Origin: an archaeon | Lineage (GTDB): Archaea > Aenigmatarchaeota > Aenigmatarchaeia > Aenigmatarchaeales > JACQIB01 | DNA: 64,000 bases | Direction: 5' to 3' | Assembly: GCA_035291225.1 (NCBI GenBank) | Contig: DATDSO010000004.1 | Coordinates: 331,130-395,129 of the forward strand | Part shown: in pieces, positions 4,666 to 42,781 of the stretch | Position numbering within the stretch: position 1 is the stretch's first letter | Layout of the letters: each line of letters begins with the position of its first letter | Position numbers and translations under genes: made by a program | Notes under the pieces: model-generated | What the model was told of the DNA's origin: nothing | The model's database searches: none | What the model saw: only the letters and a program-made list of their open reading frames with translations

Positions 4666-5193
4666 ATGCCAAGAAACAAAAAAGCCCTCCTTGAAGCTGC
4701 GCTGTTCATGGCGAACGAGCCAATGAAGTTTGAGAAATTAATGAGAGTTGTGGCAGTAGATGCTGGCAGACTGCAAGAAATGCTTGCTGAAATGAAAAAG
4801 AATTTTGAAAGCGAGGAGCGCGGAATTTATTTGCTTGAAACAGCAGAAGGCTGGGTTTTGAAAACAAAGCCGGAATATTTGAATTCTGTTAGAGCATTAT
4901 CTCCGTATCAAGATTTAAGCAAAGGGCTTTTGAGAGTTTTGGCTTTAGTAGCTTACAAACAGCCAATAACTCAAAGCGAAATTGTGCGCGTGATTGGAAA
5001 CAGAACTTACGAGTATGTGAAAATTTTGGAAGGAAGAGGTTTGCTGAAAGCAATTAAGTCTGGAAGAAGCAAGGCATTAATAATCACAAAAGGATTTCTG
5101 GATTACTTTGGCTTGGAAAAGCCAGAGGACGCGAAGAAATTATTTGAAGGGATTAAGATTGAGGAAGAGAAAGAAGAGAATAATCAAGTATGA
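4666..5193 (+). CDS. scpB: Segregation and condensation protein B (ScpB)
   Basis: LEAALFMANEP...LSPYQDLSKGLLRVLALVAYKQPITQSEIVRVIG winged-helix pattern of ScpB; smc-scpA context. Confidence 0.8.
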   Translation: MPRNKKALLEAALFMANEPMKFEKLMRVVAVDAGRLQEMLAEMKKNFESEERGIYLLETAEGWVLKTKPEYLNSVRALSPYQDLSKGLLRVLALVAYKQPITQSEIVRVIGNRTYEYVKILEGRGLLKAIKSGRSKALIITKGFLDYFGLEKPEDAKKLFEGIKIEEEKEENNQV

Positions 5194-5240
5194 ACCTTCT
5201 ATCCAACCTATTTTTAAACCTTCCATTCTAAAAACAAAAA

Positions 5241-6257: not shown

Positions 6258-6859
6258 GGATTTTTATGATGGATTACATAAAGCAAAAATTTGCTGATAA
6301 CCGCGCGGCGATAGATTCAATTGATTTGGAAATAGTGGAAAAAGTTGCGCGGAAAATTTCTGAGGCACTGAAAAATGGAAATAGGGTTTTCTTTTTCGGA
6401 AACGGGGGCTCTGCTGCTGACTCCGCGCATATCGCAGGAGAATTTTTGGGAAAATATGATTTTGTCAGGAAGGCATTGCCTGTGCAGGCTTTGACAACAG
6501 ATATTGCGACTATAACTGCTGTTGCAAATGATTTCGGCTATGAAAAAGTTTTTGAGCGCCAAGTGGAAGCGCTAGCAAAAGGGGGAGACATACTTGTTGG
6601 ATTGAGCACAAGCGGAACTTCAAAAAATGTTTTTCTTGCTTTGCAAAAAGGAAAAGAAATTGGAACTTTCAATATTGGATTTTTTGGTTCAAGCGCCTCT
6701 TCAAGTAAAGAGGGGCATGCGGCGAAAATTTGCGATTTGAATCTGTTTGTTGAAAGCCCCTTTGTTCCCAGAATTCAGGAAGGTCACAAGCTTGTCGGCC
6801 ACACGCTCGCGGGGCTTGTTGAAAAAGAAATGATGGAATTCTGGGGAAGCAAAAAATAA
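6239..6859 (+). CDS. gmhA: Phosphoheptose isomerase-like SIS-domain protein (GmhA-like)
   Basis: GNGGSAADSAHIAGEF SIS motif and overall GmhA-like layout; start may be at an internal Met. Confidence 0.75.
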   Translation: MESKYMRIFMMDYIKQKFADNRAAIDSIDLEIVEKVARKISEALKNGNRVFFFGNGGSAADSAHIAGEFLGKYDFVRKALPVQALTTDIATITAVANDFGYEKVFERQVEALAKGGDILVGLSTSGTSKNVFLALQKGKEIGTFNIGFFGSSASSSKEGHAAKICDLNLFVESPFVPRIQEGHKLVGHTLAGLVEKEMMEFWGSKK

Positions 6860-6860
6860 T

Positions 6861-7481
6861 TTACTCCAGCCTTCTTAAAGTTCTGCCCAAACCGTAGCTT
6901 TCGCAAATAGAAACTATTTCTTTATGTATTTCTCCTGAAGCTCTGTTGGCATCCACAATGTGCACATTCGGAAATTCTTTTGCAAGACCAAAATAGTTCT
7001 GTCGAATTTTTTCCATCTTTTCCTTCTCTTCAAAAAGCTCGCTATGGAATCTGCCTTTGCCGATTCTCTCTAAACAGACATCTGGCGGGCAATCCATTAT
7101 AAAAGTTATATCAGGCACGCGAAATTTGGAGTTTATTCTTTTTAGAAAATCCTTTTCTATCTGCAGTCCACCGAAAGCAATTGTAGAGAAAAAATACCTG
7201 TCAGAAATAATTATTTTTCCTTCTGCAATTCCGGGTTCAATTTCAGTATCCAGGTGATGTGCGCGGTCTGATGTGAATAAAATTTGCAAAGTTAAAAGAG
7301 ATGTTTTCCACTCTTTTTTCAGGCAGGATTTTATCAAGCCCCCGATCAAGCCGTCTGTCTGCTCTTTCGTAAGAACGACCTTGTAGCCTTGATTAATAAG
7401 GAAATTTCTTAATTCGAAAGATTGCGTGCTTAAGCCAGAGCCATCAAGCCCCTCGAAAACGATAAATTTCCCCACAGACAT
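6861..7481 (-). CDS. tmk: Thymidylate kinase
   Basis: FIVFEGLDGSG P-loop, DRYFFSTIAFGG lid region, 206 aa dTMP-kinase layout. Confidence 0.85.
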   Translation of the reverse strand: MSVGKFIVFEGLDGSGLSTQSFELRNFLINQGYKVVLTKEQTDGLIGGLIKSCLKKEWKTSLLTLQILFTSDRAHHLDTEIEPGIAEGKIIISDRYFFSTIAFGGLQIEKDFLKRINSKFRVPDITFIMDCPPDVCLERIGKGRFHSELFEEKEKMEKIRQNYFGLAKEFPNVHIVDANRASGEIHKEIVSICESYGLGRTLRRLE

Positions 7482-7528
7482 AAAAATTCAACGTCGGTAA
7501 AGCTTAAATTGATTTGATTTCTAGGAAA

Positions 7529-7981
7529 CTATCTTGCATAACTAAGCAAATCGCGCGCGCCGAAATATTTCTTCTCCGCAGCTTTTATTGTCCCAGAAAC
7601 CCCAATCACGCGGATTATTAATGGAGCATCACCCACGCGATTGAGAAGCGCCAAAGCTGCGCGAATTTTCTCAACGGCAGTGTGGTTGCACCTAATCATC
7701 CCAGTGTTTTTTTCCTCGTTCCATTCATTTTTCATAATCCATGCACCGGCTTCTGCTGCGCCCATCTCTCCCATATAATTCAGAATCGCATGCCACATCG
7801 CATTGCTCAAATCCTGAAAAGGAATTTTCTGGCTTGCAATAACTTCATAAGCTAAATATCTTTTTTTCTCACGCAAAGTCGGGGAGAGAAAGTTCGGCCT
7901 TCCTCCTAGTTCTTGTTCAAGCTTTTCCTGTGGGGTCAGTTCATGCACTTCGGCAGTTTCTTCTTCTACCATTTTCATCAC
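7529..7981 (-). CDS. rnp2: RNase P protein component 2 (Pop5 homologue)
   Basis: REKKRYLAYEV...GMIRCNHTAVEKIRAALALLNRV...GVSGTIKAA pattern of archaeal Pop5; overlaps rpp30-like gene by 4 nt. Confidence 0.7.
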   Translation of the reverse strand: MMKMVEEETAEVHELTPQEKLEQELGGRPNFLSPTLREKKRYLAYEVIASQKIPFQDLSNAMWHAILNYMGEMGAAEAGAWIMKNEWNEEKNTGMIRCNHTAVEKIRAALALLNRVGDAPLIIRVIGVSGTIKAAEKKYFGARDLLSYAR

Positions 7982-21038: not shown

Positions 21039-21130
21039 AAGTGGAGAACTTCTCTCAAATTATGTGTCGTAGAAAAATTCCGCCGCTAAAAATTTCTGGC
21101 GTATTTATTTTTTCTTTTCACACACCAGTT

Positions 21131-21163
21131 GCGAGCGCGTTTGAGTTTACTCAACGCGCGAGC
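21131..21163. repeat. GC-rich palindromic intergenic repeat, copy 1
   Basis: gcgagcgcgtttgagtttactcaacgcgcgagc; first 20 nt recur in reverse complement at 38170-38204 with one mismatch. Confidence 0.55.
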
Positions 21164-28444: not shown

Positions 28445-29179
28445 TCAACACCATTTTTTGTAAACTCTAGACAAATCAACTGTTTTTTTCAAATCTCTCA
28501 TCAAAACTTTCCCGGCTTTACCACTTATATTTTCTGCTCCGAAAATTTCTGCAGAGCGGAATTTTGTTTTGAAAATCAAAGATAAGTAAATGTTGAAGCT
28601 TTCTGCTATTTTGTCATAATGCCTTCTCCGAACCTGAGATTTATGTTTTCTAATGGCAGAAATTTTCTCCTCAAATTCTTTGCTTATATCAACCAGAAAA
28701 ACTTCATCTGAGTTATCATGAACTTTCTGAAAAATATCAGGATATACCCAAAGTATGAATTTCAAAATTGGAATTTGGAAATTCTTAAGAGACTCCAGAA
28801 CAATTCTATTAGTCTCTCTATGCTCCGGATGGCCTTCCGAAAGCGACGGGAGCAAAGCAACATCAGGTTTGAATTCTTTTACAATTTCAGTTATTTTAGT
28901 TTTAAATTTTTCCCTCACGAAATTTTTAATCAAACAAAGTTTTCCGTTTGGCACTCCAAGTTCCCAGAAATTTTTTACTTCCAGAAAATTTCTTTCAGAT
29001 GCAGCTTCTTTTGCGCGCAGAATTTTATTTTTTTCAAAATCTGAAAAATCAGTCCCTCTTCTGCTATCTGTGATATAAACATATCCGACCTCCCATCCTT
29101 TGTTCAGAAGTTTTATTATAGACCCACCGGCGCCGATTACAATATCATCATTGTGGGCCTGAAAACAGAGCAGTTTCAT
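28445..29179 (-). CDS. PIG-L/LmbE-family N-acetylglucosaminyl deacetylase-like protein
   Basis: N-terminal AHNDDIVIGAGG (HxDD...GxGG) motif of the LmbE family. Confidence 0.75.
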   Translation of the reverse strand: MKLLCFQAHNDDIVIGAGGSIIKLLNKGWEVGYVYITDSRRGTDFSDFEKNKILRAKEAASERNFLEVKNFWELGVPNGKLCLIKNFVREKFKTKITEIVKEFKPDVALLPSLSEGHPEHRETNRIVLESLKNFQIPILKFILWVYPDIFQKVHDNSDEVFLVDISKEFEEKISAIRKHKSQVRRRHYDKIAESFNIYLSLIFKTKFRSAEIFGAENISGKAGKVLMRDLKKTVDLSRVYKKWC

Positions 29180-29213
29180 AAATTAATTCGTTTTTTCAGA
29201 TTTATGAACATTT

Positions 29214-30161
29214 CTATTCAAGAATTTCAACAGCATCAACAACCCCATCATTATCCCTATCAACACCCTCAACAACTTTTGCAAACACGCCTCTTTCTCT
29301 TTTGTTTCCTGCGCAAACCTCATCAAACTTTTGCAGAAGCGCGAGCAGGGCAGCGCGCGTCCCTTGGTTTCCTTTTCCCGCAATAACTAAAATTTCCTTC
29401 TCTTTAGAGAAAGGATTTTTTGCTTTCACAATCATTCCCTCCTCTTCTGTGTAATGCTTATCAGAAAATTCCGAGTAAATGCTCGAGAAAAAATTTGCCT
29501 GTTGTTTCATTTCAATGAATTTTATCGGCAGACGGGGGTTTAACTTCGCTGTAATTGCATTCACGCGCGGACCCCCGATTAAAATCAAGTTTTCTTTCAT
29601 CTCCTCGGGCCGTAATTCTGTATCTATTTTCACGCAGGCCGGCGGTGAGTGATGGAGAAAAGTTCCGAGGAAAAGCGCGAACTGCGCAGCAGCCGGCCCG
29701 TCTTTTGCTCTTGTTTTAGCAGGACCGTGCGGCTCCGGGCTTCCCATGATTATTTTTGCATTTATTTTTCCGTCCAGCACAAATGGCTCAAGAAATTTTT
29801 TCTGTTCCCTGCTTAAGGAGAAAATTTTCTGCGCAGGCTCCATGGGCTTGAGAAGAATTGCAAAAGCAGTATGCGTGGGCGCGTAGAATTTTGCAGTTGC
29901 GCCGAGCTTGCTTTCCTCGCCAACTTTTTCAATCAAGCCTGCGGTTTGCAGATTTCTGATGTGATAGTAAACTTTCTGCTCGTGGACTTTGAGTTTTTTC
30001 CCGATTTGCTTCGGGTAAGAAGGGCTCTGAGAAAGCGTTTGCAGAATTTTCCATGCTAGAGGGCTTAAAGCTGACTTAAGCTTATGTGGCTCAAGGATTT
30101 TCGCGACTGCCGAAAAGTTTTTCCCCTCTTTTTGCTCAATTATATGCGCCATATCAACCAT
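29214..30161 (-). CDS. Winged-helix transcriptional regulator with C-terminal putative ligand-binding domain
   Basis: N-terminal wHTH (LAWKILQTL...PKQIGKKLKVHEQKVYYHIRNLQTAGLIEK); divergent from the glmS array. Confidence 0.55.
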   Translation of the reverse strand: MVDMAHIIEQKEGKNFSAVAKILEPHKLKSALSPLAWKILQTLSQSPSYPKQIGKKLKVHEQKVYYHIRNLQTAGLIEKVGEESKLGATAKFYAPTHTAFAILLKPMEPAQKIFSLSREQKKFLEPFVLDGKINAKIIMGSPEPHGPAKTRAKDGPAAAQFALFLGTFLHHSPPACVKIDTELRPEEMKENLILIGGPRVNAITAKLNPRLPIKFIEMKQQANFFSSIYSEFSDKHYTEEEGMIVKAKNPFSKEKEILVIAGKGNQGTRAALLALLQKFDEVCAGNKRERGVFAKVVEGVDRDNDGVVDAVEILE

Positions 30162-30289
30162 TACAAATATTCTTTTAATACTACTAAAAATATGTTGATA
30201 AGGTTTATAAAGCCCACGGGAGCATGATGTTCTATACTTTCAGTTCATAAGCGATTTTAATAGGAGAACTTTTTTAATTTTGTGATAAC

Positions 30290-32062
30290 ATGTGTGGAAT
30301 ACTCGGCTACTACGGACCAAAAAATGCGGCGCAAGTTGTAATCGATGGCCTTAAGAAATTAGAATACCGCGGCTACGATTCTGCTGGCATTGCTATTCCG
30401 AATGGGTTGGGATTTTTTGTCCACAAAAACGCCGGCCGCGTTGCTGATGTTTTTTCAAATTTTTCTTTGAACGGATTTTCCGGTGGAATAGCAATTGGCC
30501 ACACGCGTTGGGCAACGCACGGAGGAGTTACAGCAGCAAACGCGCACCCACACTTGAGCAACAACGGAAAAATTGCAGTTGCCCACAATGGGATCATAGA
30601 AAATTACCAAGAGCTGCGCGACCAGTTAATCGGAGAGGGGTTTGTTTTCAAAAGCCAGACCGATACAGAAGTTATTCCGATTTTGATTGAAAAATTCATG
30701 CGGCAGGGAAAAAATTTTGTGGATGCAACAAAGGAAACTTTGAAAACTGTAGAGGGCAGCTGGGCAATTGCTGCCTACCACATAGATGAAAAGAAATTAA
30801 TCGGCGCGCGCCACGAATCCCCGCTCGTGTTTGGCGTGGGTGACGGAGAATTTTTTCTGGGTTCAGACATTCCTGCTTTCCTTGATTATACAAAAAAAGT
30901 TATTGATTTAGACGATAAAGAGATGGTTGTTGTTGGAGAAGGTGGGTATCAATTATTTAGCTTAGCGAAAAATATTCCAGTCGGCCGCGCGCCATACTTG
31001 ATTGACTGGGACGCGGAGCAGGCAAAGAAAGGAAATTTCGACCACTTTATGATTAAGGAAATTATGGAGCAGGCTGAAGTTATCAAGCGCGCGATTGCGC
31101 AGGATAAAAATATTGTGATGAAAATTGCCGATGAAATAAAAAACGCAAAAGATGTTTATTTGATTGCGTGCGGCACGGCTTTCCATGGCTGCATTTCCGC
31201 GAGCTATGTTTTTGCGAAAATTGCGAAGAAAAGCGTGCGGCCGATTTATGCGCACGAGTTTCCGCAGTTCGCGGAATTTTTAGGTCCAGAAAGTTTGGTG
31301 ATTGCTGTTTCACAATCTGGAGAAACCGCAGACACTTTGAACGCGATTAGAATTGCAAAAGAGCGCGGGGCAAAAGTTTTCTCAATCACAAATGGAATGG
31401 GCTCTTCTCTTGCGCGCGAAAGCACTGGTGCGCTGATTCAAAAAGCCGGTCCGGAAATTTGCGTTGTCTCAACAAAGGCTTACACTTCCCAGCAGGCAAT
31501 ACAGGCAATGCTTGCATACTCAATGATTGGAAAATATGATGAGTGCATTTCAGCATTAAAAAATCTCGTGATGATGATTTTTTATTTGACTTCTGAAAAT
31601 GCGCGCGTCTACACAAAAAATCTTGCGGAGAAATTAAGATACGCGCAGCACATTTATCTTTTGGGGCGAGGCATGCTTTATCCTGCTGCGCTTGAGGCTG
31701 CGCTGAAAATAAAAGAAGTTTCTTACATTCACGCAGAAGCTTACGCGGGTGGGGAGCTGAAGCATGGAAATATTGCTTTGATTGAGCACGGAACCCCATG
31801 CATAATTTTCACGAACGAGGAAACCGAGCGCGAGATTTTGAGCAATGCTGCTGAGCTGAAAGCGCGCGGCGCTTACATTATTGGAGTCGGCCCGAAAAAC
31901 AATGAGCTGTTTGATTACTGGATAAAAGTCTGGGACGCGGGAATTTTCAATTCGGTTGTGCAGACAATTCCAATGCAGATTCTAGCTTACCAGCTCGCGA
32001 TTTTACGCGGCTGCGATCCAGACAAACCAAGAAATTTGGCGAAGAGTGTTACGGTGAAATAA
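30290..32062 (+). CDS. glmS: Glutamine--fructose-6-phosphate aminotransferase (GlmS)
   Basis: N-terminal MCGILGY Ntn-amidotransferase start, two SIS domains, 590 aa. Confidence 0.9.
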   Translation: MCGILGYYGPKNAAQVVIDGLKKLEYRGYDSAGIAIPNGLGFFVHKNAGRVADVFSNFSLNGFSGGIAIGHTRWATHGGVTAANAHPHLSNNGKIAVAHNGIIENYQELRDQLIGEGFVFKSQTDTEVIPILIEKFMRQGKNFVDATKETLKTVEGSWAIAAYHIDEKKLIGARHESPLVFGVGDGEFFLGSDIPAFLDYTKKVIDLDDKEMVVVGEGGYQLFSLAKNIPVGRAPYLIDWDAEQAKKGNFDHFMIKEIMEQAEVIKRAIAQDKNIVMKIADEIKNAKDVYLIACGTAFHGCISASYVFAKIAKKSVRPIYAHEFPQFAEFLGPESLVIAVSQSGETADTLNAIRIAKERGAKVFSITNGMGSSLARESTGALIQKAGPEICVVSTKAYTSQQAIQAMLAYSMIGKYDECISALKNLVMMIFYLTSENARVYTKNLAEKLRYAQHIYLLGRGMLYPAALEAALKIKEVSYIHAEAYAGGELKHGNIALIEHGTPCIIFTNEETEREILSNAAELKARGAYIIGVGPKNNELFDYWIKVWDAGIFNSVVQTIPMQILAYQLAILRGCDPDKPRNLAKSVTVK

Positions 32063-32063
32063 A

Positions 32064-32708
32064 ATGATAAAAGGTTTTGTTTCAGATATGGACGGCACTG
32101 TTGTGAATAGCGAGACGCTTTGCTTTGAGTCAACAAAAATGTTTTTGGAAAAATTTGGGATAGAATTTAGTAAAAAAGATTTTTCAGATATTATAGGATA
32201 TACAGAAATTGAAGCAGCAAAATTATTGAAAGAGAAGTTCAAAATATCATTAAGCATAGATTACATATTTTCTGAGAGAAGAAAATTCTTGGAAGCATTG
32301 AATGAAAATGCGTATTTGATAGAAGATTACTTGCGGCTGATATCTTTGCTAAAAAATAATAATGTAAAAATTTCTCTAGCTTCTTCCTCACCTAAGAAGC
32401 TAATAGAGAAAACTTTGAAGAGGAATGCGATAGAACAACATTTTATCGCTTCTGTTTCTGCTGAAGAAGTTGGTAGCAAAGTTAATGCCTATAAAACTGC
32501 TGTCGAGAAAATGGGACTTAGAACTTCGGAGTGTTTTGCACTTGAAGATTCTGTTTTCGGAGCAAGAGCTGCGAAAGATGCAGGACTCTATTGCGTTTTA
32601 ATTCCCAACGAGTTCATGAACGGCCATGATACTTCTTTCGTAGATGAGGTCCATAAAAGCATTCGAGACTTTCTGCACAAAGGAAAAGTCTTAAAGGAGC
32701 TGAGCTAA
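32064..32708 (+). CDS. HAD-superfamily phosphatase/phosphomutase-like hydrolase
   Basis: DMDGTV motif I at N-terminus, beta-phosphoglucomutase-like layout. Confidence 0.75.
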   Translation: MIKGFVSDMDGTVVNSETLCFESTKMFLEKFGIEFSKKDFSDIIGYTEIEAAKLLKEKFKISLSIDYIFSERRKFLEALNENAYLIEDYLRLISLLKNNNVKISLASSSPKKLIEKTLKRNAIEQHFIASVSAEEVGSKVNAYKTAVEKMGLRTSECFALEDSVFGARAAKDAGLYCVLIPNEFMNGHDTSFVDEVHKSIRDFLHKGKVLKELS

Positions 32709-33395
32709 ATGAAATCCTTAATACTTGCAGCAGGCCGCGGAGCAGGGGCAATGCCGCTTACTGAAAATGTTCCGAAAAGTTTGATAGCAGTAGGCAGGAA
32801 ACCATTTTTGTGGAATATAATCACAAACCTCCAGCTTGCGGGCTCAAATGAAATCGGAATCGTTGTTGGCTGGAAAAAAGAAAAAATAAAAGATTTTATC
32901 TTCAAGGAAGGTTTCAAGAACATAACTTTTATTGAGCAGTCCGAGCCAAAAGGAACTGCTCATGCGGTTTCGCTTGCGAAAGATTTTGTCGGCGGAGAAA
33001 ACTTTTTGGTTGTCATGGGTGACAATCTTTACTCGCCTGCTGACTTGAAAGAAATTTTAAATTCTGGCGGGAACTGCATTGCAGCTACAGAGCACGAATC
33101 TCCTGAAGAATACGGAGTTGTGCTCCACGAAAACGGAATCCTAAAAGAAATTATTGAAAAGCCTGCGGCTGCGGAAAGCAATCTGATAAACGCTGGCGCG
33201 TATTTTTTCACGCCGGAAATTTTCTCTGCGATTGAAAAGATTTCCGGAAATGGAAACATGAAACTGCCGGATGCTGTAAACGCTCTTGCGCAAAGTGAAA
33301 AAGTAAAAGTCCACAAGCTCAACGGCTACTGGTTTGATTTTGGAACTATAGAGGACATAATGAAGATCGAGGAAAAAATGGAGGAGCTGAAATAG
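32709..33395 (+). CDS. Sugar-phosphate nucleotidyltransferase
   Basis: LAAGRGAGAMPLTENVPKSL N-terminal G-rich loop of NDP-sugar pyrophosphorylases. Confidence 0.8.
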   Translation: MKSLILAAGRGAGAMPLTENVPKSLIAVGRKPFLWNIITNLQLAGSNEIGIVVGWKKEKIKDFIFKEGFKNITFIEQSEPKGTAHAVSLAKDFVGGENFLVVMGDNLYSPADLKEILNSGGNCIAATEHESPEEYGVVLHENGILKEIIEKPAAAESNLINAGAYFFTPEIFSAIEKISGNGNMKLPDAVNALAQSEKVKVHKLNGYWFDFGTIEDIMKIEEKMEELK

Positions 33396-33397
33396 TT

Positions 33398-34738
33398 ATG
33401 AATGATATTTCGCATATATTCCGCGCTTATGATATCCGCGGGATTTATGGAAAGGATTTGACAGACGAAGTTGCATATAAGATTGGTTTTGTTGTCGGCT
33501 CAAAAGAAAAATTTGTAGTCGGAAATGACATACGAGCTTCAAGCCCTGCGCTTGCGAAAGCTTTGATGGCGGGCCTGAAAGCAAAGGCAGCTGAAATAAT
33601 TTATGTTGGAGAGGCATCTTATGGCCAGACCTTGTTCGCAGGAAAACTTTTCTCAGCAGAAAAAACAATTTTTATAACAGCCTCGCATCTGCCTCCTGAA
33701 TGGAATGGAGTAAAGCCTTACCATGGAGATGGAATCGCTTTCAGCGAAAGCGAGCTAAAAAGTCTTAGAGACAAAGTTTTGGAAATGGAAGAAGCAAAAT
33801 TTTCTCCCGCTGAAGAAAAAATTCAAGATGTAAAAAAAGAATATTCTGATTTTCTTTTCAGGACTTTCAAAATTCCAAGAAAGCTGAAAATTGTTTTGGA
33901 CTGCGGGAACGGCGCGACATGCTTGTCTGCCCCGGAAATTTTCAAAAGATTTGGGCATGAAGTTATTGAAATGTTCTGCGCGCCTGACGCAAGATTTCCT
34001 AATAGGCCAAGCGAGCCAAGCCCAGAAAATATTTCTGCTTTGAGAAAAAAAGTTTTAGAAACAGGCGCAGACATGGGAATTGCTTTTGATGGCGATGGAG
34101 ACCGCTCTGCTGTTGTTGATGGAACCGGCCGCGTGCTTACAGGAAACGAAACCGGAGTCATGATTGGCTGCGACATTCTAAAAAATAATGGTGGCGCGAA
34201 AGTCATAAAAACTGTTTCATGCTCAATGGCTATTGACACCGAATTTGCTCCGCACAGCGCAAAAATAATTACAACTCCTGTTGGGCACACTTTTGTCGGC
34301 GAGGCTGTAAAAAGAGAAGGGGCGGTGATTGGAATTGAAGAGAGCGGGCATGTCTTCATTCCTGAATATGCTTACTATGATGATGCGCTTTTTGTGCCGC
34401 TGAAAATTATGGAAATCCTTTCTTCCAGCAAAAGAAAACTTTCTGAAATCGCAGATGAGCATCCTATTTATCCATTTGAGGAAATTGTTTTCAAATGCGT
34501 AGACTCAGAAAAATTTAAAATTATTGATAGATTTAAAGAAAAACTTTCTAAAAAATATTTAGATACAAACACCCTGGATGGCGTGAAAGTGAATTTTGAT
34601 GACGGCTGGACTCTTGTGCGCGCAGCAAACACAAGCCCAAAAATTCGGCTTTATGTTGAAGCTTTAAGCCAAAAAAGATTTGAGGATTTGAAAAAAGAAT
34701 TTCTTGGCTATTTGGAAGAGGAGGGATTGCATTTATGA
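33398..34738 (+). CDS. Phosphohexomutase (phosphoglucosamine mutase / phosphomannomutase family)
   Basis: Active-site region TASHLPPEWNG (cf. TASHNP), 446 aa four-domain layout. Confidence 0.85.
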   Translation: MNDISHIFRAYDIRGIYGKDLTDEVAYKIGFVVGSKEKFVVGNDIRASSPALAKALMAGLKAKAAEIIYVGEASYGQTLFAGKLFSAEKTIFITASHLPPEWNGVKPYHGDGIAFSESELKSLRDKVLEMEEAKFSPAEEKIQDVKKEYSDFLFRTFKIPRKLKIVLDCGNGATCLSAPEIFKRFGHEVIEMFCAPDARFPNRPSEPSPENISALRKKVLETGADMGIAFDGDGDRSAVVDGTGRVLTGNETGVMIGCDILKNNGGAKVIKTVSCSMAIDTEFAPHSAKIITTPVGHTFVGEAVKREGAVIGIEESGHVFIPEYAYYDDALFVPLKIMEILSSSKRKLSEIADEHPIYPFEEIVFKCVDSEKFKIIDRFKEKLSKKYLDTNTLDGVKVNFDDGWTLVRAANTSPKIRLYVEALSQKRFEDLKKEFLGYLEEEGLHL

Positions 34739-36063
34739 AAACAGTTTTCCTTTGCGGTGGAATTGGCAAGCGCATGCATCCGATTGCAGAAGAAAAATTT
34801 CTGCTGAAGTTCGCTGGAAAAACTTTGCTGGAGCGCCATATTGATGCTGCGCGCTCAGCAGGCTTGAAAGATTTTGTGATTATTGGAAACCCGCATAATA
34901 TTGAAAAAATAAAGGATTTGTGTTCAAGACAAAATGGAGCAAATTTTGAATTTGCTGTGCAGAAAGAGCCAAAAGGAATGGCGGACGCAATGCTTTCCGC
35001 CAGCCACATTTTTGACGGAGAAGATTTCATTGTTGTTAACACAAATGATATTTTTGAGCCAAGCGCTTACAAAAATATTTTGGACGCTGCGAAAAATTCC
35101 GAGCACGATTCTCTGCTTACTGGATATGAAGTGCAAAAATATTTTCCCGGCGGTTATTTCCGCACAAACGAAAATGGAGAAATGATAGAGCTTGTTGAAA
35201 AGCCGGGCGCGGAAAATATGCCGAGCAATCTTCTGAATATTGTTTTGCACTTGCACAGAAACACAAAAAAGCACTTCAAGCATTGGGCGGAAACAAAATC
35301 TGAAAAGGATGATATTTATGAGCGGGCTCTGACTGAAATGGTGAAGAGCGGCGGAAAAATAAAAGTTGTTCCCTATTCAGGATTCTGGACTGCAATAAAA
35401 TATCCATGGCACATTCATGACGCGGCAGAATTTTTCATGAAAAATCAAGAGAGAAAAATTTCTCCTAATGCGAAAATTTCCGAGCGCGCGGTTGTTGATG
35501 GAAATGTTGTGATTGAAGATGGTGTTAGAATTTTTGAGAACGCTGTTGTGCGCGGACCGGCTTACATCGGAAAAAATACAATCATTGGAAACAACGCGCT
35601 CGTTTGGTCAGGCTCGCATATTGGAGACAACTCCGTTGTGGGATTCTCAACTGAGATAAAGCATTCATACATAGGAGACAACTGCTGGTTTCATTCAAAT
35701 TATGTTGGAGATTCAATTATACTGGACAACACAACTTTCGGAGCAGGAACAATAACAGCAAACCTGCGTTTTGACAATGGAAATGTAAAAGTCAATGTAA
35801 GAGGAGAAAGAGTTGACACAGGCACAGAAAAATTCGGCGCGATTTTCGGAGAGAACTGCAAAACAGGAATCAATTGCGTTATACTTCCGGGAATAAAAAT
35901 CGGGCCGAATAGTTTTGTCGGGCCGCATGTGCATTTGGACGAAGACCTAGAGCCAGACAAAATGATTTTCCTGAAGCAAAGCCATGTAGTAAAAGAAAAC
36001 ACAATAAAGCCCGGGAAAAGCTATGAGGAGTTCAGAAAAAAACTTCCGGATGTTGGGAAGTGA
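34735..36063 (+). CDS. Bifunctional sugar-1-phosphate nucleotidyltransferase / hexapeptide-repeat acetyltransferase (archaeal GlmU-like)
   Basis: N-terminal nucleotidyltransferase fold (LCGGIGKRM) and C-terminal left-handed beta-helix hexapeptide repeats. Confidence 0.8.
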   Translation: MKTVFLCGGIGKRMHPIAEEKFLLKFAGKTLLERHIDAARSAGLKDFVIIGNPHNIEKIKDLCSRQNGANFEFAVQKEPKGMADAMLSASHIFDGEDFIVVNTNDIFEPSAYKNILDAAKNSEHDSLLTGYEVQKYFPGGYFRTNENGEMIELVEKPGAENMPSNLLNIVLHLHRNTKKHFKHWAETKSEKDDIYERALTEMVKSGGKIKVVPYSGFWTAIKYPWHIHDAAEFFMKNQERKISPNAKISERAVVDGNVVIEDGVRIFENAVVRGPAYIGKNTIIGNNALVWSGSHIGDNSVVGFSTEIKHSYIGDNCWFHSNYVGDSIILDNTTFGAGTITANLRFDNGNVKVNVRGERVDTGTEKFGAIFGENCKTGINCVILPGIKIGPNSFVGPHVHLDEDLEPDKMIFLKQSHVVKENTIKPGKSYEEFRKKLPDVGK

Positions 36064-36067
36064 TTCT

Positions 36068-37252
36068 ATGCGCCTCTACGAATTTGAAAGCAAGCAAATG
36101 CTGAAAAAAAATGGAATAAAAATTCCGCAGTCAGTTCTTTCCACTTCTGCGATTTCTGAAATCCCGTTCAACAGCGAAATTGCTGTGAAAGCCCAAGTGC
36201 TTTCTAATGGAAGGGGAAAAGCTGGCGGAGTGAAAGTTTTTTCCAGCCCAGAGGAAGCGAAAAATTTTGCGAACTCTTTGCTCGGCTCGGTTTTGCTGAA
36301 AGAAAAAGTGAAGTCTGTTTTGATTGAAAAGAAAATTAAAACAAAAAACGAATTCTACATAAGCTTTGCTTATGACACTGACACGCAGCTGCCGGTTTTG
36401 GTTTTGAGCAAATCCGGCGGAGTGGATGTCGCCGAGCTAACAAAAAACAGCTGGCTTGCGAAAATTCCCATTGACCCTTTGCTTGGGCTGAAAGAGTGGC
36501 AGGCGAGAGATGCTGCTGTTGACGCAGGATTCGCAAGCGAGCTGATTCCAAAAATTTCTGATTTTGCCTTGAGGCTTTACAATGTTTTCTCATCAGAGGA
36601 CTGCAGGCTTTTGGAAATAAATCCGCTGAGCCTGACAGAAGAAGGAGAGCTTGTTGCAGTCGGCGCGCTTATAGATTTGGACAACGATGCGGGCTATAAG
36701 CACAAGGAAAGAAATTATCCGCCGCGCATGCCCGGAGTTGGACGCGAACTTACAGACGGAGAAATGCTTGTGAAAAAATCTGACGAGGCAGATTACCGCG
36801 GCTCAATAAAATTTATTGAGCTCGGCGGAGAAATTGGATTTCTCGCAGCAGGTGGGGGCGGGAGCATGGCTGCGATGGACGCTTTAATTATTGCCGGAGG
36901 AAATCCCGCGAACTATGCGGAATTTTCCGGAGACCCGCCGAAAGAAAAAGTCTACGCGCTCGCGAAAGCAATTCTCTCGCAGAAAAATTTGGCCGGCTTG
37001 TGGATTGTCGGGGCAATTGCAAATTTCACGCGCATGGACCAGACAATGCAGGGAGTTGTTGAAGCCCTGAGAGAAGCAAAGCCAAAATATCCGATTGTTG
37101 TTCGGCGCTCGGGCCCGTATGAAAAAGAAGGATTGCAAATGCTGAAAGATGTTGGGGTCGAGCTCGGGCTTGACATTGAAGTGCACGGCTCTGAAGTTTC
37201 AATGACAGCGACTGCGAAGACAATTGCGGAGAAAGTTAAAAAACAAAAATGA
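36068..37252 (+). CDS. Succinyl-CoA synthetase beta-like ATP-grasp subunit (possible citryl-CoA synthetase / ACL beta)
   Basis: ATP-grasp N-terminus (QVLSNGRGKAGGVKV) and CoA-ligase C-terminus (GFLAAGGGGSMAAMD...GGNPANYAEF); start set at first Met after upstream stop. Confidence 0.75.
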   Translation: MRLYEFESKQMLKKNGIKIPQSVLSTSAISEIPFNSEIAVKAQVLSNGRGKAGGVKVFSSPEEAKNFANSLLGSVLLKEKVKSVLIEKKIKTKNEFYISFAYDTDTQLPVLVLSKSGGVDVAELTKNSWLAKIPIDPLLGLKEWQARDAAVDAGFASELIPKISDFALRLYNVFSSEDCRLLEINPLSLTEEGELVAVGALIDLDNDAGYKHKERNYPPRMPGVGRELTDGEMLVKKSDEADYRGSIKFIELGGEIGFLAAGGGGSMAAMDALIIAGGNPANYAEFSGDPPKEKVYALAKAILSQKNLAGLWIVGAIANFTRMDQTMQGVVEALREAKPKYPIVVRRSGPYEKEGLQMLKDVGVELGLDIEVHGSEVSMTATAKTIAEKVKKQK

Positions 37253-38163
37253 TTTTTATGAGCATTCTAATAAACAAAGAAACAAAAGTTTTAATTCAGG
37301 GAATTACTGGACGCAGCGGGCAGGTTGCGCTCCACACAATGAAAGAATACGGGACAAAAGTTTTGGCAGGTGTGACTCCGGGGAAGGGTGGGCAGGAAGT
37401 TGAAGGGGTTCCGGTTTTCAATTCAGTTCACGAGGCTTTGAAAAAATTTCCGGAAATAAATTGCTCAGCAATTTATGTTCCGCCCGCAGCTTGCCGCGAG
37501 GCAGTGATTGAGGCGGTTTCAAATGGAATTAAATTGGTGAATGTAATTACAGAAGGAGTTGCGATTCAGGACACGGTTCAAATGCTGCGCTACGCAAAAC
37601 TTTATGGAGCGCGAATTGTCGGGCCATCTTCAATTGGAATTTTAACTCCGAAGCAATGCAAGATTGGAGTTCTCGGCGGCTCTGCTGTGGACACTGACAA
37701 AATTTATTTTCCCGGAAGCATTGGAGTGATTTCGAAAAGCGGAGGCATGACAAATGAAACTGCATGGGTTGTGCGTTCAGCTGGATTGGGCCAGTCAACT
37801 GTTGTTGGAATTGGCGGGGATGTGATTTTGGGAACTGATTTTGTGGATTTGCTGAAAATGTTTGAGGCAGACAAGGAAACAAAAGGGGTTGTAATTTTCG
37901 GAGAGCCTGGCGGGACTTATGAGGACAAGATTGCCGAGGCTGTCAGGAAAAAAGAATTCACAAAACCGATTGCTGCTTTTATTGCAGGAGTTTTCGCCGA
38001 GAGGCTTCCGCACGGAACGCAGTTCGGCCACGCGGGCGCGCTGATTGAAAATGGAAGGGGCTCGCCTGTGCAGAAAATTAAAATTTTGAAAGAGGCTGGG
38101 GTTTTAATTGCGGAAACGCATGATATGTTGGGGGAGGTTATAAAAAGAGCTATTGAAAATTAA
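37249..38163 (+). CDS. Succinyl-CoA synthetase alpha-like CoA-binding subunit
   Basis: KVLIQGITGRSGQ CoA-binding start and phosphohistidine loop GTQFGHAGA. Confidence 0.8.
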   Translation: MIFMSILINKETKVLIQGITGRSGQVALHTMKEYGTKVLAGVTPGKGGQEVEGVPVFNSVHEALKKFPEINCSAIYVPPAACREAVIEAVSNGIKLVNVITEGVAIQDTVQMLRYAKLYGARIVGPSSIGILTPKQCKIGVLGGSAVDTDKIYFPGSIGVISKSGGMTNETAWVVRSAGLGQSTVVGIGGDVILGTDFVDLLKMFEADKETKGVVIFGEPGGTYEDKIAEAVRKKEFTKPIAAFIAGVFAERLPHGTQFGHAGALIENGRGSPVQKIKILKEAGVLIAETHDMLGEVIKRAIEN

Positions 38164-38169
38164 TTAAAG

Positions 38170-38268
38170 GGCTCGCAGGTTTTCGTAAACTCAAACCCGC
38201 TCGCGACTAATGTGGAATAAAAATATTTTCACACATTAGTTAGCGAGGCTCATGGGTTTACCCTGAGC
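38170..38268. other. Structured intergenic region: GC-rich repeat copy 2 plus two stem-loops
   Basis: ggctcgcaggttttcgtaaactcaaacccgctcgc (38170-38204); inverted repeats actaatgtg/cacattagt (38207-38240) and gctcatggg/accctgagc (38248-38268). Confidence 0.5.
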
Positions 38269-38296
38269 CGAGCAAATCAAAATAAGTTGTGATAAC

Positions 38297-39025
38297 ATGA
38301 AATGGAAAACAAAAATTTCAGATGCGAACGATGAAGGCACAAAGATTAGAGGAAAAGCTCTTGAAGAGCTTGTGGGAAAAATTTCCTATGCTGAAATGGT
38401 TTTTCTTTTGCTGCGCGGAAAAATGCCAACGCCTGAAGAAAGCAAAATGATGGAAGCGCTTTTGGTTTGCGTGGCAGAGCACAGCATTGCTGTTCCTTCT
38501 ATAACTGCTGCGCGCATAGCAGCGAGCGGCTCGGGAAGTTTTGTGCAGGGAGTTGCCGCAGGAATTTTGGGAATAGGCGAGCACCACGGAGGCGCAGGCG
38601 AGGGCTGCGCAAAAGTTCTGCAGGAAAATTTGGGAAAGCCTGCTGCTGAAGTTGTCGCAAAATTTTCCGCGAGAAAAGAAAGGCTGCCGGGCTTTGGGCA
38701 CAAAATTTATACAACAGACCCGCGCACGAAAAAACTTTTTTCAATTGCAAAAGAGCTTGGGATTTTTGGGAGCTACTGCAATTTTGCGCTTGAGCTCGAA
38801 AAAGAATTGGAGCGCGCGGGTGGAAAAAAACTCTGCCTTAATGTTGACGGCGCGATTGCCGCAATAATTTCTGAAATGGGATTCCACTGGAAAAGCGGCC
38901 GCGCGTTTTTTGTGATTCCGCGCACAGCAGGAATTTCCGCGCATGTTATTGAGGAACTGATGGAGGAGAAGCCGTTTTCAAAAAGATTGGAAGAGGGGGA
39001 ATATGAATATTTGGGGGAGAAATAA
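38297..39025 (+). CDS. Citrate synthase-fold small protein (citryl-CoA lyase-like)
   Basis: GEHHGGAGEG (cf. GPLHGGANE) and PGFGHKIYTTDPR (citrate synthase signature); 242 aa, like short stand-alone citryl-CoA lyases. Confidence 0.65.
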   Translation: MKWKTKISDANDEGTKIRGKALEELVGKISYAEMVFLLLRGKMPTPEESKMMEALLVCVAEHSIAVPSITAARIAASGSGSFVQGVAAGILGIGEHHGGAGEGCAKVLQENLGKPAAEVVAKFSARKERLPGFGHKIYTTDPRTKKLFSIAKELGIFGSYCNFALELEKELERAGGKKLCLNVDGAIAAIISEMGFHWKSGRAFFVIPRTAGISAHVIEELMEEKPFSKRLEEGEYEYLGEK

Positions 39026-39028
39026 TTT

Positions 39029-39664
39029 CTATTCAATATTTTCTTCAATTATTCTTCTGATAGCTTTCTTAACAAGCTCTTGATTTTGCGGTGGAACACG
39101 CAGCGCATTTTCTAAAGCATCTCTAAGATAAGACGGGGGCTCTGTTATAATAGGCTGTGTTCCAGATAAACTATAAGGTTCCTGAGAGGCAACTCCGCCA
39201 ACAATCACACCTTCAGGCACTCCAGAATATGCTGCATCTCTTAGAACTCTCGGCAGGTGATCCGGATTGCTCACAAAAAATACTGCCTGTTTATCTTTGC
39301 CTCCGCGAAGGGCTGCAGCAGTGCTTTCTTCTGTAGTAGTTCCGCGGGTTTCAAAATTTATAGTGTAATTTTCCAACCCAGGAAACGCTTCTCTCGCATA
39401 TTCGTAGAAAGCTGCAGTTTCCAAAACCCCCTCATGCTTTAAGCCCCCTGCAATAGTTATGTCAACTTCAAAACCGCGGCCGCTTAAAAATTCTGCCAAC
39501 TCCAAAGCAGTTCTGGTTCTATCGTAGACAACATCTTCCCAAGGCCTGAAGCCTTCTGGAACCGGCTTGGCATAGCCGCACAAAACTATTCTAACACCAC
39601 GTTTCATATTTACTATATTGGGGTAACTAATATATAAATGCCTCTCCAACCAAATGCCCTCCAT
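39029..39664 (-). CDS. Hypothetical protein, possibly DUF218 (YdcF/ElyC)-like
   Basis: Weak resemblance (VRIVLCGYA, TINFETRGTTTEES) to DUF218; start probably at internal Met. Confidence 0.4.
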   Translation of the reverse strand: MEGIWLERHLYISYPNIVNMKRGVRIVLCGYAKPVPEGFRPWEDVVYDRTRTALELAEFLSGRGFEVDITIAGGLKHEGVLETAAFYEYAREAFPGLENYTINFETRGTTTEESTAAALRGGKDKQAVFFVSNPDHLPRVLRDAAYSGVPEGVIVGGVASQEPYSLSGTQPIITEPPSYLRDALENALRVPPQNQELVKKAIRRIIEENIE

Positions 39665-39889
39665 CTATTTTAGAAATCTTCATCTCTACAAATTTTCTCA
39701 ACAAACAAAGTCTAATTACTTTTTCTCCTCTTTTTCTAAAAGTCTTGAGGCTAGAGAATATAAATGTGTTGGGGAGAAATAATATTTATAAAGATTGAAT
39801 TTCATTTCTTGCAGTGATTAAATGTTTAAATCTGCTTTTTAAAGCTCTGCAAAAGTTAGATTTATAAATATGAAATTCCAAGTAAAATT

Positions 39890-40527: not shown

Positions 40528-41277
40528 TTATTCATAATCTTTATGCAGAACATCTCGAATCTTCTGAGCAATTTTTTCTCCAACTCCGTCAACTTCTCTG
40601 AGCTCTTCTTTCGAAGCCATGAAAATTCTCTCCGGTGTCCCGAATTTTTTCAAAAGCGCGCGGGCGCGTGTGTTGGAAATCTCTGGTAGGCCAGCAATTA
40701 AAAATTCCTGCATCTGCTTGAGCCCACGCTCTTTTTTTTCTCCGCGAATAGCGAGCTCGCGGCCGCTGTCAAACTGCTCGCGCCGCGCAAGCCAGAAAAT
40801 CATTCCTGCCGTTTCCTTCGGGTCGCGCGTCCATAAAATTGGAATGGAAAAATCCAGCGCAACAGAAGCGAGCGCGCCCCTCAGAGCGTTTGGCTGTATG
40901 CGCTCGTAAAAATTATTTCCTTCAATCAGCAGCACCGGCTTTTCAAAGTTTTGCTTCAGCTCGCTCAGCTGCTTGAAAAGCCTTTGGTCCATTATGCTTG
41001 AAACCAAATCAGGAGAAGTTTTGCGCTCAACTGCAACGCGGTCTGAGCAGAGATAATCCGCAACATTCAGCATTTTTTCTTTCACAACACATTCGAACTC
41101 TGCTAGCGCCTGCACCACTCCGGAGTTCTGCTCGCGCGTGTCCACAAAAATCAGCGGCTTGGCTTTCTCAGGCTTTTTTTTCATACTCTCGCGCAGGAAA
41201 TCGAAATAGTCAATTTTTTCTTCTTTGGGCATGGAAGAAAATATCTCAGCGGGTTTAAATCTCTTTGAAATTTCCAA
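40528..41277 (-). CDS. XPF/ERCC4-type nuclease domain protein with C-terminal HhH2 (Hef nuclease part)
   Basis: ERCC4 block IFVDTRE...VADYLCSDRVAVERKTSPDLVSS and HhH2 GLPEIS...KFGTPERIFMASKEELREVDGVGEKIA. Confidence 0.8.
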   Translation of the reverse strand: MEISKRFKPAEIFSSMPKEEKIDYFDFLRESMKKKPEKAKPLIFVDTREQNSGVVQALAEFECVVKEKMLNVADYLCSDRVAVERKTSPDLVSSIMDQRLFKQLSELKQNFEKPVLLIEGNNFYERIQPNALRGALASVALDFSIPILWTRDPKETAGMIFWLARREQFDSGRELAIRGEKKERGLKQMQEFLIAGLPEISNTRARALLKKFGTPERIFMASKEELREVDGVGEKIAQKIRDVLHKDYE

Positions 41278-42781
41278 TTGTTTTCTGCGCCTGCATACCC
41301 TTCAAAATTTCTTTCATTTTTTTCTCCTTTCTGCTGGCAGAATAAAAATTCGCCTCGTCGCGCGTGTCTTTTGTAATCAGGAAAATTATTTTCCCCAATT
41401 TTGTTCTTCCAACTCGCCCGCGCCTTTGTATTGTTCTAATCTCGCTTGCAACAGGCTCGTAGAAAATTGCGATGTCCGCGCTCGCTATATGCAGGCCCTC
41501 CTCACCTATCGGGCTCGTGATTAAACAATTGTAAACTCCTGCCTCAAAATCTTTCAGCACATCAATCTGCTCTTTCTGGCTCAGGCCTTTTTCACCAGAC
41601 TGGCCGATTAAAGAAATAGGCGAGCAAATATTTTTTAAAATTTCAAGCAGGCGGGAAATATTTTCGCGGTAGTGAGAAAATATAATTATTTTTACATTCT
41701 TATTCTCTGAAAATTCTTTGGAAACAATTTCTTTCAGAGCGGCGATTTTCGGGTGCTCCTCATCCGCGAGCGCGAGCTCTTCAACATTCCTAACAGCGTT
41801 CTGGAAAGGCGCTGACTGCGAAAGCCTAATGCTAGCCTTGTCGGATTTTTTCCTCAGCTCGTCAAAATATTTTTTTGTCGCACCCACGCTTTGGGTTTCT
41901 ATAAGCTCGGCCGCATGCCAGACTTTAAGCGCTTCTGCTACAATAGAGATTATTTGGAAGTTCATCGGGTTGCTATGCAAATTTCTCTGTGCGCGGCTTT
42001 GGGCTAAAAGCAAATCCTTTTTGCTGAACGCATAAACTTTGTATTTTTTCAGCTTTTCCAAAAGCTCTCGCAGACACAGTCTGAGTGAGCTTTGGGTGTA
42101 TTTCATCTTTTGTGGAAGCTCTACGCGCACTTGAACTAAATTTTTCTCTTCAACATATTTTTCAACATCTGGATCGTTTTCGCTTCTTATTTCAACGGCA
42201 GTTGCAAAAAGATTTTCGCAGATTTCTTTTATGCGCGCCTCATCTGAACCTGGGCTTGCGGTGAGTCCGAGAATTCTTCCGCGCTTAGCCTGCTGATTGT
42301 AAACTTTGCATACAAATGGGTAGGCATAGCCTTTCACAGCTTTATGCACCTCATCAACAACCAGAAGAGAAAAGTTTTCCAAATTTAATTTTCCCGTTTT
42401 CAAATCATTTTGTATTGTCTGAGGAGTTGCAGAAATAATTTTTGCTTTCAGGTAAATTTCCTTTCTAATCTCAGGGGAGATTTTTCCTGTAAGCAAAACT
42501 ATTTCCTCTTCAGGAATTTCCATGCTTTCAGAAAAGCTTCTCATGTGCTGTTCGCATAATGGGCGCGTGGGCGCAACAATTAAAATCTTTGAATCTGGAA
42601 ACTTCTCCAAGCGCTGCGCGGCAAGCATAATAGCAACAGCAGTTTTTCCCAAGCCTGTTGGCAGAACCACGAGAGTATTATTTGCGCAAGCAGTCCGCAA
42701 AATATTTACCTGATATTCTCGCGCTTCTATTGCATTTGGTTTTACCATGGGAGAAATAAAAAATGGCATAAAATGAATCAA
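41255..42781 (-). CDS. Hef-type DEAH/FANCM-like helicase (helicase part of Hef)
   Basis: Motif I LPTGLGKT, motif II VVDEVH, motif VI QRRGRVGR; 3' end overlaps the nuclease gene by 23 nt in another frame. Confidence 0.8.
   Translation of the reverse strand: MIHFMPFFISPMVKPNAIEAREYQVNILRTACANNTLVVLPTGLGKTAVAIMLAAQRLEKFPDSKILIVAPTRPLCEQHMRSFSESMEIPEEEIVLLTGKISPEIRKEIYLKAKIISATPQTIQNDLKTGKLNLENFSLLVVDEVHKAVKGYAYPFVCKVYNQQAKRGRILGLTASPGSDEARIKEICENLFATAVEIRSENDPDVEKYVEEKNLVQVRVELPQKMKYTQSSLRLCLRELLEKLKKYKVYAFSKKDLLLAQSRAQRNLHSNPMNFQIISIVAEALKVWHAAELIETQSVGATKKYFDELRKKSDKASIRLSQSAPFQNAVRNVEELALADEEHPKIAALKEIVSKEFSENKNVKIIIFSHYRENISRLLEILKNICSPISLIGQSGEKGLSQKEQIDVLKDFEAGVYNCLITSPIGEEGLHIASADIAIFYEPVASEIRTIQRRGRVGRTKLGKIIFLITKDTRDEANFYSASRKEKKMKEILKGMQAQKTIGNFKEI

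Follow-up and report, generated by a model that had tools for sequence, protein, structure and literature searches.

A predicted split citryl-CoA synthetase and lyase linked to GlmU genes in archaea of the DPANN group and bacteria of the Candidate Phyla Radiation

A 64,000-nucleotide stretch of an Aenigmatarchaeota genome (contig DATDSO010000004.1 of assembly GCA_035291225.1, positions 331,130 to 395,129; hereafter the window, in whose numbering all coordinates are given) contains a cluster of genes for UDP-N-acetylglucosamine (UDP-GlcNAc) synthesis that ends in an unusual trio. Comparison of the three predicted proteins with characterised enzymes makes it very likely that they form a split citryl-coenzyme A (CoA) synthetase (CCS, composed of CcsA and CcsB) and citryl-CoA lyase (CCL, encoded by ccl). 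An earlier reading of the DNA alone, here called the original prediction, had recognised in these genes the modules of ATP-citrate lyase (ACL), divided as in CCS and CCL systems. All three open reading frames (ORFs) are indeed present in the same direction on the + strand, at 36068-37252, 37249-38163 and 38297-39025, and the domains, residues, indels and trees described below bear out the assignment. The trio directly follows glmU, and the same arrangement recurs in other DPANN archaea and in bacteria of the Candidate Phyla Radiation (CPR). We favour, with some reservation, the view that CCS and CCL act as a module supplying acetyl-CoA from citrate for the acetylation of glucosamine 1-phosphate (GlcN-1-P) by GlmU.

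The gene at 36068-37252 (+) encodes the CcsA-like large subunit (beta, ATP-grasp; 394 aa), which contains the Pfam domains ATP-grasp_2 (E 1e-44) and Citrate_bind (E 6e-32). An alternative ATG at 36023 would extend the protein by 15 residues to 409 aa; the shorter form is preferred because residue 1 of both CcsA and SucC falls at M36068 in the alignment. The C-terminal domain scores 111 bits against Citrate_bind (cut-off 26.8) and 20.7 bits against Ligase_CoA, under the cut-off of 24.5. Control proteins behave as expected of the two families: the succinyl-CoA synthetase subunits SucC of E. coli and Thermus have Ligase_CoA without Citrate_bind, whereas Hydrogenobacter thermophilus CcsA has Citrate_bind without Ligase_CoA. 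The latter pattern holds for every one of the 40 relatives found in DPANN and CPR loci. Among solved structures, the large subunit of H. thermophilus CCS (6hxq_B) ranks first with 197 bits, followed by Chlorobium AclB with 182 bits and SucC with at most 169 bits. SucC and SucD are the highest-scoring NCBIfam models for the two subunits, which favours a succinyl-CoA synthetase, yet the CcsA-like protein reaches only 251.6 bits against the SucC model, below the cut-off of 370.

The citrate site of the CcsA-like protein is of the ACL type. It carries the motifs GAIANFT...VVRRSGP, as do AclB, Methanosaeta ACLY-A, human ACLY and CcsA, where SucC has IFGGIVRCD...VVRLEGN. Residues G288, N319, T321 and R347 align with G309, N346, T348 and R379 of human ACLY, which we take to be the residues contacting citrate in the ACLY-citrate structure. 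The CcsA, AclB and ACLY references keep these positions, as do 39-40 of the 40 relatives, while SucC carries G, V/T and L/V in place of N319, T321 and R347. In a neighbour-joining tree, the SucC references split in 200 of 200 bootstraps from a group comprising Hydrogenobacter CcsA, AclB/ACLY, the window protein and more than 40 relatives. Within that group, the ACL clade (199/200) sits among the CCS-like sequences.

The second gene, at 37249-38163 (+), encodes the CcsB-like small subunit (alpha, CoA-binding; 304 aa) with Pfam domains CoA_binding (E 5e-26) and Ligase_CoA. The phosphohistidine loop GHAGA named in the original prediction is found at residues 260-264, within QFGHAGA, and its His261 is encoded by nucleotides 38029-38031. 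Overall similarity taken alone would point elsewhere: the top structural match is Aeropyrum SucD at 287 bits, against 237 bits for CcsB, and this counts in favour of a conventional succinyl-CoA synthetase. The score against the NCBIfam SucD model is nevertheless below its cut-off (305.5 vs 336), and the finer features are those of CcsB. Two stretches of 6 and 3 amino acids missing from SucD are present in both the window protein and H. thermophilus CcsB (6hxq_A). A phenylalanine precedes GHAGA in these two proteins, whereas all five SucD references have gaps and a methionine. The neighbour-joining tree of the alpha subunit again separates the SucD references from Hydrogenobacter CcsB, the window protein and its relatives in 200 of 200 bootstraps. 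Neither of the two synthetase subunits clusters with bona fide succinyl-CoA synthetases.

The third gene, ccl, at 38297-39025 (+), encodes a truncated citrate-synthase-fold protein of 242 aa. Its match to Pfam Citrate_synt (E 1e-38) spans profile positions 161-351 of 357, and thus only the C-terminal half. The protein passes both applicable NCBIfam models, NF004869 for citryl-CoA lyase (303.5 vs a cut-off of 212) and NF004868 (198 vs 193). H. thermophilus CCL (6hxp) is the closest solved structure at 240 bits (E 2e-70), and the next matches, ACL lyase modules and citrate synthases, reach at most 82 bits. The citrate-synthase-fold signature that had been noticed in this protein corresponds to GFGHKIYTTDPR at residues 132-143. 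Residues H62, H97, H135, R143, D184 and R209 show no variation among 28 homologues; we take them to correspond to H238, H274, H320, R329, D375 and R401 of pig citrate synthase. The small protein therefore retains the complete set of catalytic residues of a citryl-CoA lyase.

Because the beta subunit has Citrate_bind and the citrate-contacting residues, the alpha subunit has the CcsB indels and F-GHAGA, and the third protein passes the CCL model, the trio is assigned to CCS/CCL and to neither SucCD nor a fused ACL. H. thermophilus CcsA/CcsB (6hxq) and Ccl (6hxp) represent the same three-protein split of ACL, and are the closest solved relatives of the window ATP-grasp subunit and lyase. They have in common with the window proteins the alpha indels, the F-GHAGA loop and the residues for citrate binding and catalysis. 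Their CcsB is longer: the chain in the solved H. thermophilus structure has 353 residues, about 50 more than the 304 in the window. Two-subunit ACL (Chlorobium AclB/AclA, 6hxj; Methanosaeta ACLY-A/B, 6hxi) and human ACLY contain the same modules and the citrate-site motifs GAIANFT and VRRGGP, but there a single chain of about 600 aa or more joins the CoA-binding subunit and the lyase module. In the window, ccsB stops at 38163 and ccl has a fresh start at 38297 after a 133-nt spacer, which excludes a fused ATP-citrate lyase (AclAB/ACLY). SucCD shares its fold and phosphohistidine chemistry with the window proteins, and its alpha subunit is very similar overall, but it has Ligase_CoA for Citrate_bind and G, V and L where the window has N, T and R at the substrate site.

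The cluster consists of eight genes in the same direction, and the trio closes it at the 3' end; most of the other members belong to, or resemble enzymes of, UDP-GlcNAc synthesis. The first gene, glmS (30290-32062, +), encodes glutamine--fructose-6-phosphate transaminase (NCBIfam TIGR01135, 648 bits vs a cut-off of 418). It is followed by a gene for a beta-phosphoglucomutase-like HAD-family hydrolase (32064-32708, +; Pfam HAD_2; NCBIfam TIGR02009, 73 bits, below cut-off), which is 39% identical to the HAD gene in the equivalent slot of locus L079. The gene at 32709-33395 (+) encodes a sugar-1-phosphate nucleotidyltransferase consisting of the nucleotidyltransferase domain only (Pfam NTP_transferase, E 5e-37), covering positions 1-227 of the Arch_glmU model. 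An archaeal-type, GlmM-like phosphoglucosamine mutase is encoded at 33398-34738 (+); it has Pfam PGM_PMM domains I-IV, and its top NCBIfam model, Arch_GlmM, scores 370 bits, below the cut-off of 439. Then comes glmU (34735-36063, +), whose product is probably an archaeal-type bifunctional GlmU, followed by ccsA, ccsB and ccl. From glmS through ccsB the genes are tightly packed, with gaps or overlaps of 0-4 nt. As the original prediction had noted, the first two genes of the trio overlap and directly follow glmU: the ccsB start overlaps the ccsA stop by 4 nt (ATGA), and glmU ends at 36063, four bases ahead of ccsA. The description of the trio as appended to the UDP-GlcNAc array thus holds through ccsB, but the structured spacer before ccl means that the trio itself is not uniformly tight. 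Co-transcription of glmU, ccsA, ccsB and ccl is presumed from this layout.

GlmU of the window contains both a nucleotidyltransferase and a left-handed beta-helix (LbH) acetyltransferase domain, and scores 291.4 bits against NCBIfam TIGR03992 (cut-off 292.1). Its best structural matches are 5z09, which is matched over residues 1-405, and 2ggo; we take both to be Sulfolobus tokodaii ST0452, an archaeal sugar-1-phosphate nucleotidyltransferase and GlcN-1-P acetyltransferase. ST0452 is thus the best solved relative and is matched over its full length, but the score is only 174 bits. The equivalents of His308, Tyr311 and Asn331 are kept, whereas that of Lys337 is a glycine; we presume these residues to be functional in ST0452, with His308 as the essential histidine. 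We know of no described linkage of ST0452 to citrate-cleavage genes.

The conservation of the arrangement was assessed by scanning species-representative genomes, which yielded 80 loci encoding CCL relatives, and by inspecting a 10 kb flank at each. In about 35 Aquificales loci, ccl is solitary, with neither ccsAB nor glmU within 10 kb. By contrast, ccsA, ccsB and ccl are colinear in 41 DPANN and CPR loci, making 42 ccsA loci with the window. The archaea concerned include Aenigmatarchaeota, Woesearchaeota, Micrarchaeota and Nanoarchaeota; the bacteria include Daviesbacteria, Woykebacteria, Curtissbacteria, Microgenomates, Kaiserbacteria and Colwellbacteria, as well as metagenome-assembled genomes (MAGs) labelled Gammaproteobacteria. 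A same-strand gene of the GlmU type with an LbH domain lies upstream in 25 of the 42 ccsA loci, namely in 22 of the 25 CPR loci, the window, L079 and L002, and in 11 of these 25 it is at most 100 nt away. Three further loci found by exact-protein look-up, beyond the 42 (L083, L084 and L086), also have an upstream GlmU-type gene. Within DPANN the linkage is clade-restricted. Where other genes separate ccsB from ccl, they are unrelated insertions: Fic, thioredoxin/DsbD, toxin-antitoxin-like and retropepsin-like small ORFs.

The identity of the GlmU partner varies while its position does not. Three GlmU families occupy the slot: the archaeal TIGR03992-like type, the classical bacterial type (TIGR01173) and the alternative type (TIGR03991). 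The clade of the window and most Microgenomates-group CPR have an archaeal-type bifunctional GlmU as partner. Woykebacteria have just the acetyltransferase half of that type, and Curtissbacteria and L050 have the classical bacterial GlmU's acetyltransferase domain (TIGR01173 positions 250-437, 235 bits). A Patescibacteria single-cell genome has an 'alternative bacterial GlmU' (TIGR03991, 362 bits, above cut-off). Replacement is also seen at short range. The closest public locus, L079, comes from a Candidatus Aenigmatarchaeota MAG whose three trio proteins are 81-86% identical to those of the window, yet in close relatives with this degree of CCS identity the neighbouring GlmU carries a fused HAD domain and shares just 32% identity.

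Further neighbours of the trio belong to the same pathway or to acetyl-CoA metabolism. In L083 the trio is followed by a gene for phosphoglucose isomerase (PGI), and in L086 by one for a ROK sugar kinase; the citrate-cleavage genes are therefore embedded in the UDP-GlcNAc pathway. The clusters of three CPR loci also encode a threonine dehydrogenase (Tdh) and a glycine C-acetyltransferase of the Kbl type, both scoring slightly under the equivalog cut-offs, which would offer another way of forming acetyl-CoA. Tdh and Kbl together convert threonine into glycine and acetyl-CoA. Their genes lie between GlmU and ccsA (in the 4754-7954 region of L047 and at 4754-5944 of L080) or just upstream of glmS (L077). 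Elsewhere, other upstream neighbours include a weak GNAT match and an Acyl_transf_3 membrane acyltransferase.

Three observations on these loci stand apart. A gene of the CofD/YvcK family recurs within the glmS-glmU-ccs cluster (L079 5007-5984, L083 3219-4187, L077 6721-7779 and L087 1-351); in Bacillus, YvcK/GlmR binds UDP-GlcNAc and regulates GlmS, a role that would suit the amino-sugar theme. A nucleoside diphosphate kinase gene is located directly upstream of ccsA in L044, L045 and L062, which belong to two Nanoarchaeales and one Colwellbacteria and have no nearby GlmU. Finally, ten 'uncultured Gammaproteobacteria' MAGs from binchicken co-assemblies (L047, L048, L050, L052, L056, L057, L061, L064, L066 and L068) are placed by the CcsA tree and the CcsB tree alike within the Daviesbacteria/Microgenomates clade and share its neighbours TrpRS, FtsH, Nramp and XerC-like genes; their taxonomic label is probably wrong.

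By analogy with the characterised enzymes, CcsAB would convert citrate, ATP and CoA into citryl-CoA, ADP and Pi via a phosphorylated His261 of CcsB, both the substrate and the direction of flux being predicted from the protein sequences. Cleavage of citryl-CoA by Ccl would then give oxaloacetate and acetyl-CoA, whose acetyl group the LbH domain of GlmU would transfer onto GlcN-1-P; the freed CoA would return to the synthetase, and the nucleotidyltransferase domain would complete UDP-GlcNAc. Each acetyl group would cost one ATP. The citrate would be scavenged, probably from an external or host-derived source. The cluster would in this way hold every carbon-handling step to UDP-GlcNAc, with a small pool of CoA cycling through it. 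A dedicated acetyl-CoA supply for GlmU had been guessed from the single locus of the window; it gains from a linkage that is kept across DPANN and CPR and partly renewed by gene replacement, although the coupling of CCS/CCL to GlmU is still something that we infer from comparative genomics. The presence of Tdh/Kbl and of acetyl-CoA-consuming neighbours fits supply rather than removal of acetyl-CoA.

Several points weigh against this supply role or the evidence for it. In 3 CPR loci and about 14 DPANN loci at greater distance there is no linkage to GlmU, so the trio does not show it universally. A large share of the CPR signal is contributed by Daviesbacteria/Microgenomates that are related to one another, and common descent or whole-block transfer may account for part of it. 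The structured 133-nt spacer could give ccl separate regulation, the ACL reaction is reversible, and the window GlmU falls 0.7 bits under its NCBIfam cut-off. The subunit trees, built by neighbour joining with 200 bootstraps, include only 5-7 reference sequences.

The alternative that fares best, though we regard it as unlikely, is that a genuine CCS/CCL serves general central metabolism, whether a complete or partial reductive tricarboxylic acid (TCA) cycle, carbon fixation or citrate catabolism, and that it adjoins glmU by accident, the genome being compact, or through transfer and joint inheritance of the block. The many DPANN loci without GlmU linkage are consistent with such a role. In Aquificales, CCS/CCL is the established citrate-cleavage system of the reductive TCA cycle (PMC9802188), and Micrarchaeota have been listed as possibly having a complete cycle of this kind (preprint 10.1101/2022.10.25.513756). 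DPANN genomes with CCS/CCL have, however, been reported without complete cycles (PMC8091004). A Pfam scan of 45 ORFs in the 64-kb window likewise found no further TCA or acetyl-CoA genes, only housekeeping archaeal genes, two MFS transporters and an RnfD-like fragment. Accidental adjacency is also hard to reconcile with its outlasting the replacement of GlmU by three families and by domain-only versions, and with the position of the trio in L083 and L086, where UDP-GlcNAc pathway genes lie both before and after it. Whereas ccl of Aquificales is unlinked to ccsAB and has a reductive TCA role, the three window genes lie in a row at the end of a UDP-GlcNAc operon. To our knowledge, the lineage of the window is not known for a TCA cycle.

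Less probable again is flux in the reverse direction, in which the trio would work as an ATP-conserving citrate synthase (acetyl-CoA, oxaloacetate, ADP and Pi giving citrate, ATP and CoA) or act on a related hydroxy-acid substrate. The ACL reaction is near equilibrium and has been described running in reverse in Desulfobacter, and the citrate-synthase fold can take other acyl-CoA substrates. Set against this, there is no reported need for citrate in these lineages, and the neighbours are acetyl-CoA consumers together with a second producer, Tdh/Kbl. A different substrate is also disfavoured by the near-complete conservation of the citrate-contacting residues, and malate-CoA ligase is excluded by a score of 194 bits against a cut-off of 604. 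The alternative raised in the original prediction itself, a conventional SucCD followed by an unrelated citrate-synthase-like gene, is contradicted by domain content, motifs, indels, curated cut-offs, trees and the colinearity with CCL in 42 loci, and can be given almost no weight.

The presence of CCS/CCL homologues in DPANN and CPR is already known. NCBI names the DPANN homologues 'citryl-CoA lyase', and a 2021 paper described CCS/CCL in a few DPANN MAGs, leaving their part in carbon fixation unclear (PMC8091004). A 2022 preprint, framed around the reductive TCA cycle, reported that DPANN have CCS homologues and that misannotated CCS/CCL homologues occur in both DPANN and CPR (10.1101/2022.10.25.513756). 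The nearest precedent for citrate scavenging is a 2019 mBio proposal for a Gracilibacterium, a CPR bacterium, in which the archaeal affinity of the genes was noted (PMC6851277). There too an ultra-small symbiont would obtain acetyl-CoA and oxaloacetate from external citrate, but by a fused two-subunit ACL, with no GlmU link stated and with import of UDP-GlcNAc predicted, whereas the window enzymes are split and their genes are physically linked to those of the pathway. Our literature search for a link between GlmU and CCS/CCL returned only these mentions of homologues and the one ACL-based proposal. The conserved linkage to GlmU is new in that no prior report of it was found.

The spacer between ccsB and ccl (38164-38296, +) is predicted to fold as a three-way junction with a minimum free energy of -44.5 kcal/mol (z -5.3 vs shuffles), and has an AT-rich, TATA-like stretch within its long hairpin. 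About 40 nt of it (GTAAACTCAAACCCGCTCGCGACTAATGTG...) recur inverted at 21112-21150, between the genes for ABCE1 and an ABC-2 permease. The spacer has no match in Rfam, and an exact search for the element in 82 loci found nothing. Close relatives L079 and L083 lack the spacer, so that ccl directly borders ccsB there. Possible identities for the spacer are a small repeat element, a terminator/promoter and a regulator site.

The other end of ccl also departs from its relatives. The last 16 codons and stop of ccl (FSKRLEEGEYEYLGEK, 38975-39032) are duplicated in degenerate form 757 nt downstream (FSKSLEAREYKCVGEK, 39732-39789), and the two copies flank a convergent DUF218 gene (39029-39664, -). 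The DUF218 segment appears to have been inserted at the 3' end of ccl, a position at which relatives carry PGI or the ROK kinase. At their 5' ends, ccl and glmS have an identical leader, TTGTGATAACATG (38290-38299 and 30286-30292, respectively), which is probably a Shine-Dalgarno-like GTGAT ribosome-binding site unusually near the start codon.

The remainder of the window is archaeal in character, encoding aIF5B, ABCE1, FttA/aCPSF1, proteasome alpha, a Hel308-type helicase and a split Hef. A search for RNA genes in the window found no tRNA and no Rfam family match. Divergent from glmS, at 28445-30161 (-), are two genes encoding a PIG-L family (GlcNAc-type) de-N-acetylase and a helix-turn-helix (HTH) protein with an S-layer-like C-terminal domain; these may share an envelope-sugar theme with the glmS cluster. 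Hef appears to be split at 40528-42781 (-) into a helicase ORF (41255-42781; DEAD and Helicase_C) and an ERCC4/HhH2 nuclease ORF (40528-41277), which overlap by 23 nt and each have a TTG start.

A broader possibility, which we advance more tentatively than the supply role itself, is that GlmU, CcsA, CcsB and Ccl form a dedicated module that crosses domains and turns host-derived citrate into the acetyl group of UDP-GlcNAc in ultra-small DPANN and CPR organisms. Because the CPR copies adjoin an archaeal-type GlmU, the block is suggested to have moved from archaea to bacteria as a unit, and it would document a multi-gene metabolic block common to both domains. The module would also be an example of a biosynthetic operon with its own acetyl-CoA generator. 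If this is correct, envelope synthesis in episymbionts would depend directly on a TCA intermediate of the host, and a very small pool of CoA would shuttle between GlmU and the synthetase. This amounts to a testable nutritional dependency for DPANN and CPR symbionts, with citrate entering and acetyl groups of cell-wall or other glycans coming out. Metagenomic surveys take CCS and CCL as markers of the reductive TCA cycle; in DPANN and CPR genomes of this kind they would be unrelated to carbon fixation, and a role in amino-sugar synthesis in organisms that lack a TCA cycle would reassign them there and remove false positives for carbon fixation.

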